Shown here one piece after another: positions 10,177 to 15,629 of a DNA stretch of 32,000 nucleotides (the first letter of the stretch is position 1; each line of letters begins with the position of its first letter). The notes below the pieces were generated by a model, which saw only the letters and a list, made by a program, of their open reading frames with translations, ran no database searches and was not told the origin of the DNA. Position numbers and translations under genes: made by a program. Origin of the DNA: Candidatus Saccharimonadota bacterium (GTDB lineage: Archaea; Micrarchaeota; Micrarchaeia; Micrarchaeales; Micrarchaeaceae). The stretch is taken from assembly GCA_963705375.1 (NCBI GenBank), contig OY970071.1:930001-962000 (forward strand), in the 5' to 3' direction.

Positions 10177-10830
10177 ATGCCCTCCAATACCGAGCTGCGC
10201 AATCTCGCTAAGAAGTACAAGCTTTTCGTGTTTGACTGGGACGGCACGCTCCTTTATATGCGCTTTCCACTGGCCGTGAACGAGTCGATAAAGCGCGCGT
10301 TGAGGCTGTGGAACGTGTCTGCGCCAAAAAGGCTTGTCGATACGCACGATTGCGAATTCAAAAAGACGCTGGTCCATGAGGAGATCAAGAACAGGATCTT
10401 CACCTTCTTCGCGGACATGATATTCCTGTTGAACAAGCCGAAACTGCACAATGATACCATAAGGATACTCAAGATGCTGAAGAAGGAGCACAAACTCATA
10501 GCGATATTCTCGAACAGCGGGCGCTACAGGCTGCTCAAAGAGATCTCATATCTCGGAGTAAAGGACTACTTCGACCTGATAGTGAGCGCGCGCGAATACC
10601 ACGCAACAAAACCTGATCCTGCAGGCCTCAAGGCATTGCTCCACAGGATGAATATAAAGCCCGGCGACTCAGTGTACTTCGGCGACATGGTGGACGATGT
10701 GATAGCTGCAGAACTGGCGCATATGCACACTTGCGGAGTTGCGGACGGCTTCGACAGCTACCACACCCTCAAGAGCGCAAAACCCGAGCACCTGTTCAAG
10801 AGCATGGAGGAGCTAAGCAAGGCATTGTAG
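10177..10830 (+). CDS. HAD-superfamily hydrolase (phosphatase, Gph-like)
   Basis: HAD motif I is FVFDWDGTL (DxDxT), motif II is IFSNS, and motif IV is YFGDMVDDVIAA. The gene starts 4 nt after the leuS stop. Confidence 0.8.
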   Translation: MPSNTELRNLAKKYKLFVFDWDGTLLYMRFPLAVNESIKRALRLWNVSAPKRLVDTHDCEFKKTLVHEEIKNRIFTFFADMIFLLNKPKLHNDTIRILKMLKKEHKLIAIFSNSGRYRLLKEISYLGVKDYFDLIVSAREYHATKPDPAGLKALLHRMNIKPGDSVYFGDMVDDVIAAELAHMHTCGVADGFDSYHTLKSAKPEHLFKSMEELSKAL

Positions 10831-10934
10831 GCCAAAACCATGTCCTGGCCGATTATTTCCTAATCCAAAGCCGGCAAATCGAGGAAAAAGACAGGTATAA
10901 ATATCTGGAAATATCCAACGGATTTCGTGGTTTG

Positions 10935-11723
10935 ATGAATTCAAACGCTTTGGGCAAGGCAATGCCTCTTGATGAGCAGATCAACGAACTTGACAAGGCT
11001 TCTTACAACTTTAAACAGGCCTATCAAGAATTTAACAGGAATCCTCGAAACTTTGGGCAGAACAAGGAAGACGTAGATGCTCTATGCACCGGTGCCGTGT
11101 TATGTATGCTATCCAAAAGGTATCGTGATGCGACCGAAGTGTGCGAGAAGATACTGGGTCTGGATCCGGTACGCGAAATTCTTGAAAAAGGGCTGAAAGA
11201 TGCTGCATCTGAGAAGAGACTGCTTGAAAACACATTCACATACAAGGCGATTGCCCTGGCAGGTCTCGACAATCTCGGTCCTGCACTATCATCTTTTCAA
11301 ATGGCAAATGCGCTCGGTACGTTGGCTCTTGACAAGTCAGAAAGAGATTATGAACGCGCTGACGTTGGCATTGAACTTGCCTGCGAAATCACCAAGCTTC
11401 ACTCAAAATTAAAGCAGAACCCCGAAGACCCAGAACCGCTGTGCAAAAGTGCGGCGGTGGTGATGCTGCTTAGGCGATACTCCGACGCGATTGATGCATG
11501 CGAGAGTGTGTTGGGCATGGTGCCTCTACCAAAAATACGCGAAAATGAGGTGACTAGTGCCGTGCTGCCAGAAGATGGAACGTTCAGAAAAGTATTGGTG
11601 CTTGAGAGGACGTATGTGTATGAGGCGATAGCGTTCGCAGGCATCGATGAGTCCAGCGCCGCCCTTGCGGCTTTTGCAACCGCAAATAGGCTTGGCACCT
11701 TGATAAGGCGCAACGAGCCGTGA
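10935..11723 (+). CDS. Hypothetical helical-repeat protein with an internal ~126-aa duplication
   Basis: The start was trimmed from the 10731 ORF, which overlaps the HAD gene, to the ATG at 10935, about 32 nt downstream of the TATA-like tataaata (10896-10903). The two halves align, for example NPRNFGQN..ALCTGAVLCMLSKRYRDATEVCEKILGLDP...ANALGTL against NPEDPEPLCKSAAVVMLLRRYSDAIDACESVLGMVP...ANRLGTL. Confidence 0.6.
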   Translation: MNSNALGKAMPLDEQINELDKASYNFKQAYQEFNRNPRNFGQNKEDVDALCTGAVLCMLSKRYRDATEVCEKILGLDPVREILEKGLKDAASEKRLLENTFTYKAIALAGLDNLGPALSSFQMANALGTLALDKSERDYERADVGIELACEITKLHSKLKQNPEDPEPLCKSAAVVMLLRRYSDAIDACESVLGMVPLPKIRENEVTSAVLPEDGTFRKVLVLERTYVYEAIAFAGIDESSAALAAFATANRLGTLIRRNEP

Positions 11724-11766: not shown

Positions 11767-13020
11767 ATGAGGATTACCATGGTCACGCTTACAAAATTAC
11801 AACCGCTGTTGCCCAATGTCGAAGTGCTGACATACCAATCTGGTAGGTTTCCTATCCAATTAGAAATTCCAAAGTCCTCGACACTTTCCGAGCAGGACAT
11901 AGAGAAAATACTAAGGGTTAGCAGCTGGGAGACCAGTCCAGATAAAATCGCAGATGGCTACGAAGGCGGCAGATCGGTACTTTTGCTCAGGGAAAATCCC
12001 ATTCAGAAAGGGCCGATAGGGCTGCCAAGTCTGCAGGTCAGCGGGATAGGCTTTAGAGAAATTGATTTTTCTGGAAGCCTTCCGACCACTAACGAAGTAT
12101 TCTATCCTCCCAGCTCGGAGAATTTCATGAGCCGTGTTCCTGAAACTGTGATGGGGACAAGCTACGCCAAAGGCACTGAGTTAAAGGCAGACCGACCTAC
12201 GTATCTGCCGATAGGAACATATACTGCATCCGGATTGCTCAAGAAAGTAAAGAACACTCAGAAAGTCGCAGAGCTCGACCTAGAAAATATGATCGTGCCT
12301 CACGTTGAAGCTTATGGTAGATATCTAGATGCGAAGCTGCGAAACGAGGAAGGTCCCTTCGGATTTATAGTGCTTCCAAGTCCGGATCCGAAAAAGTCAA
12401 GAGCTGCAAACGATTTCTTTGGACAGTTCTGTAAAGTTGTACGCAGAGGCAACAGGGTAGATACTGACGCCACAATGGCATTCTACTACGGGCTTTCCCC
12501 ATACATAGCTGTGATGGCTAACGGACTTAGGGAACTGCACGACAAAGGCAGACTTGTGCACCTCCAAACTCACTTGGAGAATTTCTATGTTGTTAACGGG
12601 AAGCCGTATGTCGTGGATTGGACTACGATGAAACGGCTCGGAGAAAATGTAGAAGAGAACATTATCAACAGGACAATAGATCTAAAGAGGCCGGTTGATG
12701 ATTTTGGCACCCTTTTCTCTAAGGTCTTTCCGAATGTTCCTAAGGAGGTTAGGGCTGGAATAGTCATGCTGGTCGAAGAGGCGTCAATGGAGGTATATTC
12801 TGGCCATCCTGAAAAAGAGATAAAGCTTCTTTCTATCGTTGACAAACAACGTCCTGATTTAAGAAATAAGATGACCGAGTTCGACGCCATGGTGCAGTGG
12901 ATGAAGGATGAATGCATCGAAGGCTACAAAGAAAGAAAAGCGGACAAGACCGAGCCTCCGCATGGTTCCGGAAAGAAGTCCAAGCAATGGCGTGCTGCGC
13001 TCCTCCGCAAAGGTTCGTAG
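11767..13020 (+). CDS. Hypothetical protein; possible protein-kinase-like fold lacking the catalytic Asp
   Basis: A 417-aa ORF with no competing ORF. The segment LVHLQTHLENFYVVNGKPYVVDWTTM resembles the HxDxxxxN ... D(W/F) catalytic core of APH/choline-kinase-type kinases but has Gln in place of Asp. The C-terminal tail is Lys-rich. The product assignment is weak. Confidence 0.6.
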   Translation: MRITMVTLTKLQPLLPNVEVLTYQSGRFPIQLEIPKSSTLSEQDIEKILRVSSWETSPDKIADGYEGGRSVLLLRENPIQKGPIGLPSLQVSGIGFREIDFSGSLPTTNEVFYPPSSENFMSRVPETVMGTSYAKGTELKADRPTYLPIGTYTASGLLKKVKNTQKVAELDLENMIVPHVEAYGRYLDAKLRNEEGPFGFIVLPSPDPKKSRAANDFFGQFCKVVRRGNRVDTDATMAFYYGLSPYIAVMANGLRELHDKGRLVHLQTHLENFYVVNGKPYVVDWTTMKRLGENVEENIINRTIDLKRPVDDFGTLFSKVFPNVPKEVRAGIVMLVEEASMEVYSGHPEKEIKLLSIVDKQRPDLRNKMTEFDAMVQWMKDECIEGYKERKADKTEPPHGSGKKSKQWRAALLRKGS

Positions 13021-13414
13021 TGAATCGCAATCTGATTCTCCGACACGTTTTCTTGTCAAAAACTTTAAGGTAGTGGCAGGCCGTAGCCCTCTTTTTGTTT
13101 TAGGCAGCATCAGTCTAAGCGGCGTTTACGCCTTGCATACTCATCGCGCACGCATCGGCCGTTTCATCCGTATCTGCAAGCTCGTCGTGTCATCGCTTAT
13201 ATGCAGCAACGGTCTCGTTTCTGTTCCGAATTAGGCGTTATGCCATGTGCGGCTCTGTATGAGAGGAGCTTCCTCCTTTCGGTAGGCTGCCCGCCTGCCA
13301 CCAAATAAAAAGGGCATTTAACATCTATAAGCGTTACCAATAGCACACACCGTTTTAGAATGTGTCTGATTCGACCTAGAAATATTTTACGAGGCCATTA
13401 TGCCTTTTAAAGAA

Positions 13415-13449
13415 CCAAAAGATACCTATTTATATGTAAAAAAGGCAAT
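13415..13449 (+). promoter_or_regulatory. Putative archaeal promoter (A-rich BRE-like tract plus TATA box tatttatatg at 13427-13436) of repeat-protein gene 1
   Basis: The same element precedes all four paralogues (15984-15993, 19548-19557, 22356-22365). It lies only 22-23 nt upstream of the first ATG, which implies a leaderless mRNA or use of the Met-6 codon. Confidence 0.5.
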
Positions 13450-15243
13450 ATGATTCTTGTTCTTATGATCGACAGAAACTTTGACCCTACAAAAGGCAAA
13501 GAGTCTAGAAATTCGCAAGATCCTATTTCGGAAATATTGCGCGACGAAGCAGAAGAGCAACATGACAGTGCAGCATCTGTAGTCGAAGATCAGACGAATC
13601 AAGACAAGAAAATACGGCTGCTAAACGACCACGACATTATTGTTTCTGCATCAGATTTTGTCTTAGACGCGAGTTTGGTGACTCTAACTGAGAATGTCAA
13701 AACTTTAGAAGACAACCACCTTCCCCTCGATAAGTCAATAGAAGTCCTACGCTCCGATCCCCAGCGCCTAAGAGACAACATCCAGACCCTCACAGCCAAC
13801 CACCTCCCTCTCGACCAGTCGATAGCAGTCCTGGGCTCCGACCCCCAGCACCTGAGAGACAACATCCAGACCCTCACCGACAGCCACCTTCCCCTCGATA
13901 AGTCAATAGAAGTCCTACGCTCCGATCCCCAGCGCCTAAGAGACAACATCCAGACCCTCACAGCCAACCACCTCCCTCTCGACCAGTCGATAGCAGTCCT
14001 GGGCTCCGACCCCCAGCACCTGAGAGACAACATCCAGACCCTCACCGACAGCCACCTTCCCCTCGATAAGTCAATAGAAGTCCTACGCTCCGATCCCCAG
14101 CGCCTAAAAGACAACATCCAGACCCTCACCGACAACCACCTCCCTCTTGATCAGTCGATAGAAGTCCTAGGCTCCGACCCCCAGCGCCTAAAAGACAACA
14201 TCCAGACCCTCACCGACAACCACCTCCCTCTTGATCAGTCAATAGAAGCCCTAGGCTCCGATCCCCAGCACCTAAAAGACAACATCCAGACCCTCACCGA
14301 CAACCACCTCCCTATTGATCAATCGATAGAAGTCCTGATGTCCGACCCTCAGCACCTAAGAGACAACATCCAGACCCTCACCGCCAACCATCTTCCCCTC
14401 GACCAGTCGATATTCGTCTTGGGCTCAGATCCCCAGCGCCTAAAAGACAACATCCAGACCCTCACAGCCAACCACCTCCCTCTTGATCAGTCGATAGAAG
14501 TCCTACGCTCCGATCCCCAGCGCCTAAGAGACAACATCCAGACCCTCACAGCCAACCACCTCCCTCTCGACCAGTCGATAGCAGTCCTGGGCTCCGACCC
14601 CCAGCACCTGAGAGACAACATCCAGACCCTCACCGACAGCCACCTTCCCCTCGATAAGTCAATAGAAGTCCTACGCTCCGACCCCCAGCACCTAAGAGAC
14701 AACATCCAGACACTCACAGCCAACCACCTTCCCCTCGATAAGTCAATAAGCGTTCTAAGCTCCGACCCCCAGCGCCTAAAAGACAACATTCAGATTTTCC
14801 GAGCAAACAGTCTTCCCATCGCCCATTCGATATCCGCTCTAAGTGCCGATCCTGCCCGTATAAAAAAGAACATCACTCTATTATCCGAGCATAATGTTTC
14901 TCTCACCAAATCAATCCGGGTTCTGACTGGCGACCCTGTGCACGTCGAAGAAAATATCGCGACGCTGGAGGCTAGAGAAATAGATTTCGCAAAAGCAACT
15001 GATGTTTTACGTGCAAATCCCGGACATTTGAGGGAGAACATCGTGACTTTGGATGCCGCTGAAATCGATTTTACCAATACGGTTTCTGTCCTAAATGCAA
15101 ATCCAAAGTCCCTTAAGGAAAACATCCAGACCCTGATCAGTCTGGGAATGAACCCCTCAGAGTTCCCGCAACCGTCCCTTCTTAAGTACTCGCCCAAACG
15201 ATTTAGAAAGGCCTTGGCGGAATTGATGGCTATTTCTGTATGA
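13450..15243 (+). CDS. 28-aa-repeat alpha-solenoid-like protein, paralogue 1 (597 aa; 13 canonical + 4 degenerate repeats + cap)
   Basis: A single long ORF with a unique acidic N-terminus (no signal peptide), 13 in-frame repeats of NIQTLT[AD][NS]HLP[LI]D[QK]SI[AEFS][VA]L[GRMS]SDP[QR][HR]L[RK]D, then 4 degenerate repeats and a C-terminal cap. The periodicity and pattern are mTERF-like. An alternative start is Met-6 at 13465. Confidence 0.85.
   Translation: MILVLMIDRNFDPTKGKESRNSQDPISEILRDEAEEQHDSAASVVEDQTNQDKKIRLLNDHDIIVSASDFVLDASLVTLTENVKTLEDNHLPLDKSIEVLRSDPQRLRDNIQTLTANHLPLDQSIAVLGSDPQHLRDNIQTLTDSHLPLDKSIEVLRSDPQRLRDNIQTLTANHLPLDQSIAVLGSDPQHLRDNIQTLTDSHLPLDKSIEVLRSDPQRLKDNIQTLTDNHLPLDQSIEVLGSDPQRLKDNIQTLTDNHLPLDQSIEALGSDPQHLKDNIQTLTDNHLPIDQSIEVLMSDPQHLRDNIQTLTANHLPLDQSIFVLGSDPQRLKDNIQTLTANHLPLDQSIEVLRSDPQRLRDNIQTLTANHLPLDQSIAVLGSDPQHLRDNIQTLTDSHLPLDKSIEVLRSDPQHLRDNIQTLTANHLPLDKSISVLSSDPQRLKDNIQIFRANSLPIAHSISALSADPARIKKNITLLSEHNVSLTKSIRVLTGDPVHVEENIATLEAREIDFAKATDVLRANPGHLRENIVTLDAAEIDFTNTVSVLNANPKSLKENIQTLISLGMNPSEFPQPSLLKYSPKRFRKALAELMAISV
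13693..14784 (+). repeat. Array of 13 near-identical in-frame 84-bp units (coding)
   Basis: An 84-nt period is visible directly, for example caaccacctccctctcgaccag at 13797 and cagccaccttcccctcgataag at 13881. The coding strand is C-rich and G-poor (37 C against 15 G in a representative unit). Confidence 0.95.
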
Positions 15244-15252
15244 TGCCGATTT

Positions 15253-15624
15253 ATGCCGTTTGGTGTGTCTGCGTCTTGCCTATTAGACCAATGCGTAAAA
15301 CCTTTTATTGATTGTTATCCATACGGTATCGTGGTGACCATGGCCGCACTGTCCATCAGCAGCACACTCCTGGGAGAGATCGTACTCATAGCGCTGATAG
15401 CGGTCGTTCTGTTCATCATATTCAAGCTGGGCAAGTTCTTCTTCAAGCTTATCTTTGGAATATTAGCGAATAGCATATTGGGTCTGATAGCGATATTTGT
15501 TCTAAACGATTTCCTGAATTTCAGCATACCGATAAGTTTTGCTACGATGGTTCCAACAGCGATATTCGGTCTGCCTGCCGTGGGCACTCTTGTGATACTG
15601 CGCTTCTTCGGAATACCCCTCTGA
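15253..15624 (+). CDS. BofA-like small integral membrane protein, copy 1
   Basis: The gene starts 9 nt after the repeat-protein stop. The C-terminal half ANSILGLIAIFVLNDFLNFSIPISFATMVPTAIFGLPAVGTLVILRFF resembles the BofA family pattern (..N.....I.iP.N..T......LG.PG...L...) as I recall it. An alternative start at 15340 (MAALSISS..., preceded by ggtga) would give a BofA-typical ~94 aa. Confidence 0.65.
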   Translation: MPFGVSASCLLDQCVKPFIDCYPYGIVVTMAALSISSTLLGEIVLIALIAVVLFIIFKLGKFFFKLIFGILANSILGLIAIFVLNDFLNFSIPISFATMVPTAIFGLPAVGTLVILRFFGIPL

Positions 15625-15629
15625 AAGGA

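Follow-up and report, generated by a model that had tools for sequence, protein, structure and literature searches.

A tandemly amplified family of 28-residue repeat proteins in a Micrarchaeota genome, with mTERF-like features of sequence and predicted fold

Four repeat genes and their neighbours

The window analysed here, a stretch of 32,000 nucleotides, belongs to the genome of a Micrarchaeota (DPANN) archaeon, as indicated by its RNase P RNA, the Hel308-type helicase encoded in the window and the LeuRS, whose nearest matches are named Ca. Micrarchaeota sequences. Entry P0155 is 100% identical to the LeuRS of the window. Four genes (A to D; Table 1) encode tandem-repeat proteins with a period of exactly 28 amino acids (84 nt) and no insertion or deletion across the four arrays, which confirms the period originally read from the letters. 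Tandem Repeats Finder gives copy numbers of 12.9, 24.9, 15.9 and 12.9 for A to D with 85-91% matches, and the units are 88% identical at the DNA level.

Every array follows one plan: an N-terminal cap unit, the canonical units, a single transitional unit, then four degenerate units, and finally a 30-residue C-terminal cap. In protein A an acidic N-terminus of about 62 residues, modelled with low confidence, is followed by the N-cap unit (residues 63-90), the 12 canonical units (91-426), the transitional unit (427-454), the degenerate units (455-566) and the C-cap (567-597). The longest array, that of protein B, reaches about 31 units when caps and degenerate units are counted, and protein C has the most diverged N-terminal region of the four paralogues. 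Ten core unit types (24 full types) can be told apart, and their order differs in each paralogue. The segment at 14785-15243 that the original prediction had singled out is the in-frame, degenerate C-terminal end of plus-strand ORF 13450-15243 (residues 446-597, position 14785 falling at residue 446). The string quoted for it, SIRVLTGDPVHVEENIATLEAREIDF...SPKRFRKAL, is found exactly in the translation of that ORF, and the C-terminal module does recur, with one or two substitutions each, in the ORFs ending at 18807, 21615 and 24171.

The shared upstream element AAAAGATACCTATTTATATGTAAAAAGGCAAT, a putative promoter, carries a TATA-like box 12-19 nt upstream of the first ATG and forms the 5' boundary of the duplication-unit homology. 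Gene A is followed after 9 nt by a BofA-like gene, and three histone genes sit between the repeat genes, each transcribed divergently from the next repeat gene. Gene D belongs to the last, incomplete copy of the duplication unit, in which homology stops about 12 nt past the stop codon.

Table 1. Features of the repeat locus (positions within the window)
Feature	Position	Strand	Remarks
Archaeal RNase P RNA	13072..13302	-	Left edge of the ancestral locus that received the repeat genes
Shared upstream element AAAAGATACCTATTTATATGTAAAAAGGCAAT	13415..13449	+	Precedes all four repeat genes; alignment A6
Repeat protein A	13450..15243	+	597 aa; 12 canonical units
BofA-like small membrane protein	15253..15624	+	123 aa; Pfam BofA, E 5.5e-9
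Archaeal histone	15630..15827	-	65 aa; Pfam CBFD_NFYB_HMF, E 1.2e-9
Repeat protein B	16006..18807	+	933 aa; 24 canonical units; N- and C-terminal modules as in A
BofA-like gene, other copies	18817-19188; 21625-21996
Archaeal histone, other copies	19194-19391; 22002-22199	-
Repeat protein C	19570..21615	+	681 aa; 15 canonical units
Repeat protein D	22378..24171	+	597 aa; 12 canonical units

Amplification of the locus

In the closest relatives, loci L006 and L007, orthologues of the BofA-like gene (70-74% identity) and of the histone gene (81% identity) occupy the same site, one copy each, and no repeat gene is present. A repeat gene entered this locus of RNase P RNA, BofA-like gene, histone and Hel308, and later amplification produced four paralogues and extended their arrays to 12-24 near-identical units. 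The histone and BofA-like genes are ancestral neighbours that were co-amplified with it. The adjacency to histone genes named in the original prediction is real, three of them being interleaved with the repeat genes, but it is explained by this co-amplification. That histone and repeat gene are functionally linked was rejected as the default reading, since L006 and L007 keep both neighbours with no repeat gene.

Conservation and variation within the repeat unit

Residues L1, L3, I7, L10, P14, L17, N20, I21 and L24 of the unit are invariant, as are S and D at positions 12 and 13. Across the 63 canonical units (12+24+15+12), the 17 synonymous steps are distributed among 15 codons whose amino acid stays constant, and because the conserved residues vary synonymously we take the units to be under purifying selection. 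Non-synonymous change is concentrated on codons 8 and 11, which account for 10 of the 19 steps (P=1.7e-7). These two positions lie at the helix-loop junction of the predicted structure, and residue 11, the most variable, stands three residues upstream of the conserved P14. In relatives P0001 and P0151, whose arrays are diverged, variability likewise peaks at position 11, closely followed by position 8.

Could the arrays result from mis-assembly, could their ORFs be mere coiled-coil or low-complexity sequence, or could they be pseudogenes in decay? They are crossed by long antisense ORFs, the protein collection lacks the exact sequences of protein A, of the histone and of the BofA-like protein, the gene-position index lacks those of LeuRS and protein A, and the many Pfam matches of the repeat proteins in the window are to coiled-coil and low-complexity families only (MIP-T3_C at E 7e-27, for example). 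We rejected those matches as spurious because they are sums of many short ones, and no score approached the cut-offs of NCBIfam on the window proteins. All four ORFs, however, are intact and free of frameshifts and stops, their 84-nt register being perfect, synonymous variation at conserved residues shows purifying selection, genuine homologues have diverged units, and the predicted fold is confident (pLDDT 94), all of which leaves an artefact very improbable. Synonymous variation, together with diverged homologues in strict 28-residue register in other genomes, shows that the plus-strand ORFs are truly coding.

Relatives in other Micrarchaeota

The family is rare and unannotated, with about a dozen cluster representatives, and as far as seen it is confined to Micrarchaeota. 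Homologues P0001, P0002, P0004 (MCX6775935.1), P0151, P0153 and P0154 are all entered as "hypothetical protein". They share 40-49% identity over the repeats, the strict 28-residue register and the C-cap (PSEF..LL..P..F) with the window proteins, and differ from them in having 2-11 diverged units in basic repeat regions, in occurring as single genes or pairs rather than as a four-gene array, and in carrying an N-terminal "EFxxWLxKEFGM" helical domain and/or one or two C-terminal domains. The C-terminal domain looks winged-helix-like by eye; its weak matches in the search tools are to EF-hand proteins only. tblastn found none of these accessory domains in the window.

With the C-terminal 208 aa as query, a word-index homology search returned no matches; with alignment A2 it returned only six proteins. 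A genome scan with protein A alone found nothing. The scan with alignment A3 yielded two Micrarchaeota loci and one metagenome contig, and no viral contig. Arrays of this kind are expected to collapse in assemblies made from short reads. Nothing specific on archaeal mTERF or on Micrarchaeota repeat proteins emerged from literature searches.

Predicted fold

The alignment-based AF2 model is all-helical with pLDDT 94 and pTM 0.84, confidence that may be inflated because the input alignment is shallow, with 23 rows of which many come from the same proteins. For pseudo-alignments, the array was cut into non-overlapping in-register blocks. Each modelled unit consists of a short helix (residues 3-10), a three-residue loop (11-13) and a long helix (14-26). 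DSSP counts two helices per unit rather than three because the "P..L" turn is fused into the long helix. On this model the four genes are predicted to encode all-helical solenoids of the 28-residue unit, stacked into a superhelix like those that MTERF1 and TAL effectors use to follow the DNA major groove.

Foldseek searches of the PDB with the model are consistent with this description. All matches at probability >=0.99 are DNA-groove-tracking superhelical repeats (MTERF1, TAL effectors and BurrH), with no HEAT, ARM, TPR, PPR, ANK or LRR chain in the PDB matches, and the search against viral structures gave no match. The top matches are MTERF1-DNA complexes (TM 0.61-0.67, query-normalised; 18-21% identity; probability 1.00), with chains 5cky, 3mva, 3n7q, 3n6s, 5crk and 3mvb at ranks 1, 2, 4, 6, 7 and 9; their E-values of 1.8e-3 to 1.1e-2 are marginal, none falling below 1e-3. 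The TAL effectors dHax3 and PthXo1 and BurrH follow at TM 0.50-0.63, probability 0.99-1.00 and 11-15% identity. The structural comparison thus ranks MTERF1 first, in line with the original prediction, but with marginal E-values and with TAL effectors and BurrH nearly level.

A different solenoid was suggested by AlphaFold on the single sequence of protein A, which gave a poor alpha/beta model with a strand-helix unit. Leucine-rich repeats of the ribonuclease-inhibitor (RI) type have a period of 28-29 residues, with the segment LxxLxLxxN/CxL as a beta-strand, and an LRR-like alpha/beta solenoid would therefore agree with both this model and the 28-residue period. That model was discarded at pLDDT 52.7, against 94 for the alignment-based all-helical one. 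With LxxLxLxxN/CxL absent from the unit as read from its sequence, and with LRRs missing from the Foldseek matches, we consider an LRR-type structure the least credible of the alternatives.

Resemblance to mTERF proteins

The mTERF signature has proline at motif position 8 and, at positions 11, 18 and 25, leucine or a different hydrophobic residue (Roberti 2009, quoted in PMC11417379). The archaeal unit shows the corresponding P-x2-L-x6-L-x6-L at P14, L17, L24 and L3 of the next unit (P, +3, +10, +17), residues that change rarely or never among the 63 canonical units and are conserved in the relatives. The mTERF motif spans about 30-33 residues in three helices arranged as a triangle, and in MTERF1 conserved prolines cap the central helices and follow the major groove (PMC4705650). 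The archaeal unit likewise has an N/D-P helix cap followed by those hydrophobic residues, and its N..P spacing of 22 residues equals that of some MTERF1 motifs without a gap. It departs from the motif in size and helix number, with 28 residues against about 33 in MTERF1 (some five linker residues fewer) and two DSSP helices against three.

Two independent sequence profiles searched against 177,635 PDB sequences place MTERF1 first, at marginal E-values. With profile A5, made of naturally diverged units, the best eight matches are all human MTERF1 (E 0.001-0.0035), and three MTERF4/MTERFD2 sequences follow at E 0.3-0.9; with profile A1, MTERF1 is at the top (E 0.007-0.02). Profile A4, which includes the accessory domains, found no MTERF1 and only weak EF-hand and nucleoporin matches.

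The Pfam check suggested for the original prediction was negative. The mTERF family PF02536 stays below its gathering threshold of 23.1 bits everywhere and is absent at E<=1 for the C-terminal 152 aa encoded at 14785-15243; for full-length protein A it is missing among the 25 best families listed. On relative P0010 it scores 16.4 bits (E 0.0044), below the cut-off, and it matches two of 14 repeat segments, with a best E of 8.2e-4, while spurious coiled-coil families score equally or higher on these sequences.

The proposed resemblance to mTERF is supported by motif spacing and, at marginal E-values, by the PDB-profile and fold matches; PF02536, unit length and helix number speak against it. 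Like mTERF proteins, the window proteins are superhelical helical-repeat proteins by prediction, and mTERF is their best structural and sequence-profile match. Unlike them, they are built of strictly tandem, near-identical units instead of diverged, interspersed motifs, form acidic arrays, come from an archaeal host without organelle targeting and score below the Pfam threshold. The original prediction is thus partly supported: among the families tested mTERF is the closest in sequence and fold, formal membership not being established, and the unit is a shortened mTERF-type motif, whether relative or look-alike. What fits best is the alternative already allowed for in the original prediction, a distinct, compressed family with a unit about five residues shorter than that of mTERF.

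Convergence, by independent origin or from TALE-like ancestry, might also have produced a unit that mimics the mTERF pattern, with nucleic-acid binding still possible. Such an origin would be in keeping with the sub-threshold Pfam scores, Foldseek E-values of 2e-3 to 1e-2 with TALE and BurrH scoring almost equally, the two helices in 28 residues against three in 33, and the lack of MTERF1 among the matches of the wider profile A4. Yet MTERF1 and MTERF4 are the sole repeat family that the profiles found among the PDB sequences, no TALE or BurrH chain appeared at E<=10 with A1, A4 or A5, the 22-residue spacing and the proline-hydrophobic pattern align gap-free with the mTERF motif, and identity in the structural alignments is higher to MTERF1 (18-21%) than to TALEs (11-14%). 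We regard convergence as possible but on balance unlikely.

TAL effectors and bacterial pTERF

TALE units are 33-35 residues long and carry their specificity residues at positions 12 and 13. The archaeal units differ from this in having 28 residues and variable positions 8 and 11, and no secretion or nuclear-localisation modules were recognised in the proteins. Their similarities to TALEs and TALE-likes (AvrBs3/PthXo1/dHax3, BurrH/Bat, MOrTL, STAR), which are the second-best structural matches, are nevertheless several: a modelled two-helix unit in what Foldseek matches to a DNA-tracking superhelix, units near-identical in DNA with degenerate first and last ones, several paralogues that differ in unit number and order, and variation focused on two residues where a short helix meets a loop.

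A prokaryotic parallel is provided by pTERF, bacterial mTERF-like tandem repeats of 35 aa whose affinity for specific DNA is in the nM range (Hu et al. 2024, PMC11417379). These proteins have 3-11 units annotated as mTERF motifs, occur mostly in Bacillota of the ruminant gut, and show differences in unit arrangement that accompany differences in specificity; pTERF1 (MBQ3414883.1) is TR_35_C32_2, with a period of 35 aa, and its source MAGs are all bacterial (PMC11417379). The window proteins share with pTERF a prokaryotic host and strictly tandem, mTERF-like helical units, and pTERF offers a precedent for DNA binding. Going by the published description of pTERF, they are set apart as archaeal, with a 28-aa unit, up to 24 canonical units and no mTERF annotation. 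The novelty claimed for a prokaryotic mTERF relative is weakened because pTERF was described in 2024 (PMC11417379).

Proposed function

The best reading, to which we assign a probability of about 0.5, is a modular nucleic-acid-binding solenoid whose mechanism we infer. We favour it because every confident Foldseek match is a superhelix that tracks the DNA groove, because MTERF1 heads the PDB sequence matches of two profiles and PF02536 gives weak matches in relatives, because non-synonymous change clusters at codons 8 and 11, because the unit types are reordered in each paralogue, and because pTERF binds specific DNA (PMC11417379) and the repeats of the relatives are basic. Each protein would bind nucleic acid over a long stretch, double-stranded DNA being the most likely ligand, with one unit for every one to few nucleotides. 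L1, L3, I7, L10, P14, L17, N20, I21 and L24 would build the scaffold. The ligand would be read by the pre-proline loop together with the exposed side of the short helix (positions 5, 8 and 11), joined by position 16 and by 26/27 of the previous unit. The four orders of about ten unit types would then specify four different targets.

Counting against nucleic-acid binding are the marginal E-values of the mTERF matches in sequence and fold, the lack of the relatives' accessory domains in the window proteins, and the acidity of the canonical arrays. The latter carry a net charge of -21.6 per 12 units, with a whole-protein pI of about 5, unlike the repeat regions of the relatives (pI about 9.5) and unlike MTERF1, which is basic as well. 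The objection from acidity is softened, though not removed, by the apparent role of D4 and D13 as helix N-caps.

Micrarchaeota live attached to host archaea, and the acidic arrays may instead form a protein-binding scaffold or host-interaction factor, comparable to HEAT, ARM or TPR arrays, whose partner would be a basic protein, for example the histone, or else a protein of the host, with the variable positions tuning recognition in an arms race. The pI of 9.9 of the neighbouring histone, the rapid lineage-specific amplification with hypervariable surface positions, the large LamG-domain proteins (taken as surface proteins) that adjoin the array, and the absence from the window of what in the relatives are candidate DNA-binding accessory domains are all consistent with such a role. 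No protein-binding repeat family is found among the fold matches, though, the confident ones being all DNA binders; the histone linkage goes back to co-amplification, relatives having the histone without the repeat gene; and a signal peptide is absent by eye, the N-terminus being polar. We judge a protein scaffold rather unlikely.

Within the nucleic-acid-binding reading that we prefer, a more specific and quite doubtful version would make the proteins programmable readers in the manner of TALEs, each unit specifying one or a few nucleotides through positions 8 and 11, aided by 5, 16 and 26/27. The four paralogues would address four long targets, and their rapid, lineage-specific amplification would reflect an arms race, possibly because the proteins are aimed at the host archaeon's DNA or RNA, or at that of a virus, and not at the cell's own genome.

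Implications

mTERF-type repeats have long been held to be eukaryotic and linked to organelles. The archaeal 28-residue family carries an mTERF-like fold class, as predicted, to the third domain of life, and bears on the origin of mTERF-like and TALE-like DNA-wrapping solenoids. Up to 24 near-identical units that differ mainly at two surface residues, in four unit orders, bear at the genetic level the signature of a modular recognition code. If nucleotides are what the units read, they would constitute a module smaller than that of TALE (34 aa) or PPR (35 aa), usable in designed DNA or RNA binders, and would give a first molecular lead on nucleic-acid regulation or interference by a genome-reduced DPANN symbiont. 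Should the programmable version prove true, archaea would have their first "one unit, one code word" system, and the family would be a third such system, independent of TALE and PPR/PUF and more compact.

Four proteins built on an exact 28-residue repeat

The putative mTERF-like stretch at 14785-15243 lies in frame within a forward-strand ORF and encodes the C-terminal 152 residues (446-597) of its product, protein A; the amino-acid string quoted in the original prediction is an exact match to the translation. The same C-terminal module had been noted at three further places, and a region of ~170 aa is common to the ORFs ending at 18807, 21615 and 24171. When proteins A-D are cut every 28 residues from residue 7, the register is perfect to the end of each protein and the arrays hold no insertions or deletions, in exact agreement with the 28-aa period first proposed. 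Tandem Repeats Finder reports 84-nt periods with 85-91% matches. Each protein has a polar, acidic N-terminus (low-confidence in the model), a degenerate N-cap unit (IIVSASDFVLDASLVTLTENVKTLEDNH), canonical units numbering 12 (A), 24 (B), 15 (C) and 12 (D), one transitional unit, four degenerate units and a C-cap (MNPSEFPQPSLLKYSPKRFRKALAELMA) with a 2-residue insertion in the MAFFT alignment. The canonical form is LPLD[QK]SI[AEFS][VA]L[GRMS]SDP[QR][HR]L[RK]DNIQTLT[AD][NS]H.

Positions of the repeat genes and their co-amplified or flanking neighbours (L006 and L007, syntenic loci of the two closest relatives)
Feature	Position	Strand	Remarks
Archaeal RNase P RNA	13072-13302	-	89.7 bits; equivalent site occupied in L006 and L007
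Repeat protein A	13450-15243	+	
Repeat protein B	16006-18807	+	933 aa; N-terminal ~90 aa and C-terminal ~170 aa as in A
Repeat protein C	19570-21615	+	681 aa; N-terminal ~90 aa and C-terminal ~170 aa as in A
Repeat protein D	22378-24171	+	597 aa; N-terminal ~90 aa and C-terminal ~170 aa as in A
BofA-like membrane gene + archaeal histone gene, triplicated	15253-15827, 18817-19391, 21625-22199		

The arrays are a real coding repeat under selection. Across the 63 canonical units, mean pairwise nucleotide identity is 88%, and synonymous change amounts to 17 minimal steps over 15 codons, 10 of them amino-acid-invariant. Codons 8 (E/A/F/S) and 11 (G/R/M/S) take 10 of the 19 minimal non-synonymous steps (binomial P = 1.7e-7); positions 5, 9, 16, 18, 26 and 27 are two-state. 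Ten core and 24 full unit types occur, in an order that differs in each paralogue apart from some common blocks, and positions 26/27 of a unit vary together with 5/8/11 of the one after it. GC skew falls to -0.46 within the arrays (13700-14800, 16270-18360, 19830-21170, 22640-23720), a strong strand asymmetry reflecting a C-rich coding strand. Long antisense ORFs running through the arrays, such as 22527-23717 (-, 396 aa), are by-products of the repeat. A TATA-like box (TTTATATG) stands 12-19 nt before the first ATG (13415-13470, and at the corresponding places ahead of B, C and D), a second ATG occurs at codon 6, and translation may begin there on a leaderless mRNA.

Relationship to mTERF

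No window protein matches Pfam PF02536, the first check proposed for mTERF membership. The family model gave 16.4 bits on the relative P0010 against a cut-off of 23.1 and matched 2 of 14 repeat segments (E 8e-4), scores no better than those of spurious coiled-coil families. PDB sequences were searched with profiles. With in-register six-unit blocks, MTERF1 chains were 8 of the 9 best matches (E 0.007-0.02); with naturally diverged units, the top eight were all MTERF1 (E 0.0011-0.0035), followed by three MTERF4/MTERFD2 (E 0.3-0.9). The MTERF1 motif LNLENNIKFLYSVGLTRKCLCRLLTNAPRTF aligns without gaps across one whole unit. The MTERF1 matches disappeared when the profile was widened to take in the accessory domains.

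A single-sequence model was strand-helix-like and poor (pLDDT 52.7), and was rejected. When a 23-row alignment was supplied, the model of residues 399-597 of A reached pLDDT 94 and pTM 0.84, each unit comprising a short helix (3-10), a loop (11-13) and a long helix (14-26). Foldseek against the PDB placed MTERF1-DNA complexes first (TM 0.61-0.67, 18-21% identity, E 1.8e-3 to 1.1e-2), then TAL effectors, TALE-based editors and BurrH (TM 0.50-0.63, 11-15% identity), with no other match above probability 0.9. Repeat classes such as LRR or HEAT, which as best matches would have spoken against mTERF, did not appear: there was no HEAT, ARM, TPR, PPR, PUF, ANK or LRR match.

As quoted in PMC11417379, the mTERF motif is marked by Pro at position 8, with hydrophobic residues following at positions 11, 18 and 25; P14, L17, L24 and L3' of the window unit correspond to these. 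The window unit is, however, ~5 residues shorter, is predicted to have two helices instead of three, and falls below the curated Pfam threshold. By sequence and predicted fold, mTERF is the nearest known family and its signature is kept. Homology is plausible; we regard the repeat as a distinct, compressed mTERF-like family, an option the original prediction had already raised.

A small family within Micrarchaeota

Searching 1.84 billion cluster representatives with the six-unit profile yielded 289 matches at E<=1e-3, most of the best-scoring of which proved on inspection to be unrelated simple repeats and were rejected. The true relatives number about a dozen (P0001, P0002, P0004, P0010/P0151, P0018, P0026, P0049, P0093/P0152/P0153/P0154). 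All those named are Candidatus Micrarchaeota "hypothetical proteins", and no relative, named or not, belongs to a Pfam or NCBIfam family. Among 185,579 species genomes, scans found only two loci, both in Micrarchaeota; JGI metagenomes yielded one more and viral contigs yielded none.

The relatives keep a strict 28-aa register (11 diverged units in P0001, 7 in P0002) and have the C-cap motif PSEF..LLGLPPEEF in common with the window proteins. Most have an "EFxxWLxKEFGM" domain at the N-terminus and, once or twice, a C-terminal domain, YxFSD..FxYL..R..P.EQ.AF.EIG...RL..IL..LVKDGGLE (also given as FxYL..R..P.EQ.AF.EIG...G.L.K.EM.EIF....RL..IL..LVKDGGLE). The latter is the conserved C-terminal ~100 aa of P0002, P0004, P0049, P0152 and P0153, present twice in P0001; it has no Pfam family, its only matches among PDB sequences are weak ones to EF-hand proteins (centrin, CDPK, E 0.05-0.5), and to the eye it resembles a winged helix. 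Both accessory domains are absent from the window proteins. The canonical arrays in the window are acidic (-21.6 per 12 units); the relatives' repeat regions have a pI of ~9.5.

P0153 (L001 8001-8804) has the RNA polymerase operon (rpoH side) of its Micrarchaeota genome on one flank and the ribosomal protein L3 operon on the other, a position that would suit a gene-expression factor. The neighbours of P0151 (L003 4428-9688) are a phage-type integrase, a DNA methyltransferase and a HepT/MNT toxin-antitoxin pair, a setting that points to a mobile or defence island there. At L004 9203-12680, P0001 is directly followed by a second, shorter paralogue (357 aa; isolated units and two C-terminal domains), so tandem paralogy is not unique to the window.

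History of the locus

L006 and L007 both run from HAD hydrolase through RNase P RNA (-), BofA-like (+) and histone (-) to Hel308 (-), each single-copy, with no repeat protein gene. The BofA-like and histone pair occupies the same site (L006 13770-14342; L007 18681-19172). In the window, A follows RNase P RNA, a BofA-like gene and then a histone gene stand between each repeat gene and the next, and Hel308 comes after D. Homology among the copies runs from 35 nt upstream of the start codon to ~12 nt past the D stop. The arrival of the repeat gene is thus specific to this lineage, and tandem duplication then amplified it together with the ancestral BofA-like and histone genes. This genome-reduced archaeon has its three near-identical histone genes only as passengers of that amplification: their adjacency to the repeat genes, mentioned in the original prediction, is real but needs no functional explanation.

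Between the HAD hydrolase and RNase P RNA genes lie ORFs 10731-11723 (weak TPR matches) and 11767-13020 (417 aa, no family). L006 has no counterpart of either, and L007 has three unrelated genes there, after the HAD hydrolase; this intergenic site seems to accept insertions. A listed ORF at 12908-13234 (+) overlaps the RNase P RNA and is probably spurious. A LAGLIDADG homing-endonuclease ORF separates the YgjP-like and SOD genes of a relative (L007 8427-9248, L008 2014-2835) and is absent from the window and L006. Other window genes encode a Hel308-type helicase, LeuRS, SOD and LamG-domain proteins. The LeuRS is 100% identical to one database protein, 75-78% to two JGI proteins and ~64% to proteins named Candidatus Micrarchaeota. 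Downstream of the helicase (26438-31661), two large proteins (941 and 604 aa) with multiple Laminin_G_3 domains are conserved in relatives and resemble DPANN surface or adhesion proteins.

Novelty and proposed function

The premise of novelty for any prokaryotic relative of mTERF has been overtaken by the publication of pTERF in 2024; that report covers bacterial members only, with a 35-aa period, and archaea are not mentioned (PMC11417379). Our search of the literature on archaeal mTERF and Micrarchaeota repeat proteins returned no paper describing the 28-aa family, and to our knowledge it is undescribed, especially the hyper-expanded four-gene array with TALE-like hypervariable residues.

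The confident structural neighbours are all trackers of the DNA major groove, and MTERF1 has its central helices capped by conserved prolines that run along the groove (PMC4705650). Residue 11, the most variable, lies three residues before the conserved proline; residues 8 and 5 are predicted to be exposed together on one side of the short helix. In the old, diverged arrays of the relatives position 11 is again the most variable, with 8 close behind. Combined with the differing unit orders of the four paralogues, such variation is typical of a modular recognition code like that of TAL effectors. A precedent comes from bacterial pTERF: its tandem mTERF-like 35-aa units bind specific DNA at nanomolar affinity, and a different arrangement of units gives a different motif (PMC11417379). 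Against nucleic-acid binding speak chiefly the acidity of the arrays and the loss of both accessory domains; the main competing proposal is a scaffold that would bind proteins or interact with the host. Taken with the groove-tracking neighbours, the variable positions 11 and 8 and the unit orders, the pTERF precedent leads us to favour modular nucleic-acid binding, at a probability of about one half; the four proteins would then read their targets through the face formed by residues 11, 8 and 5.
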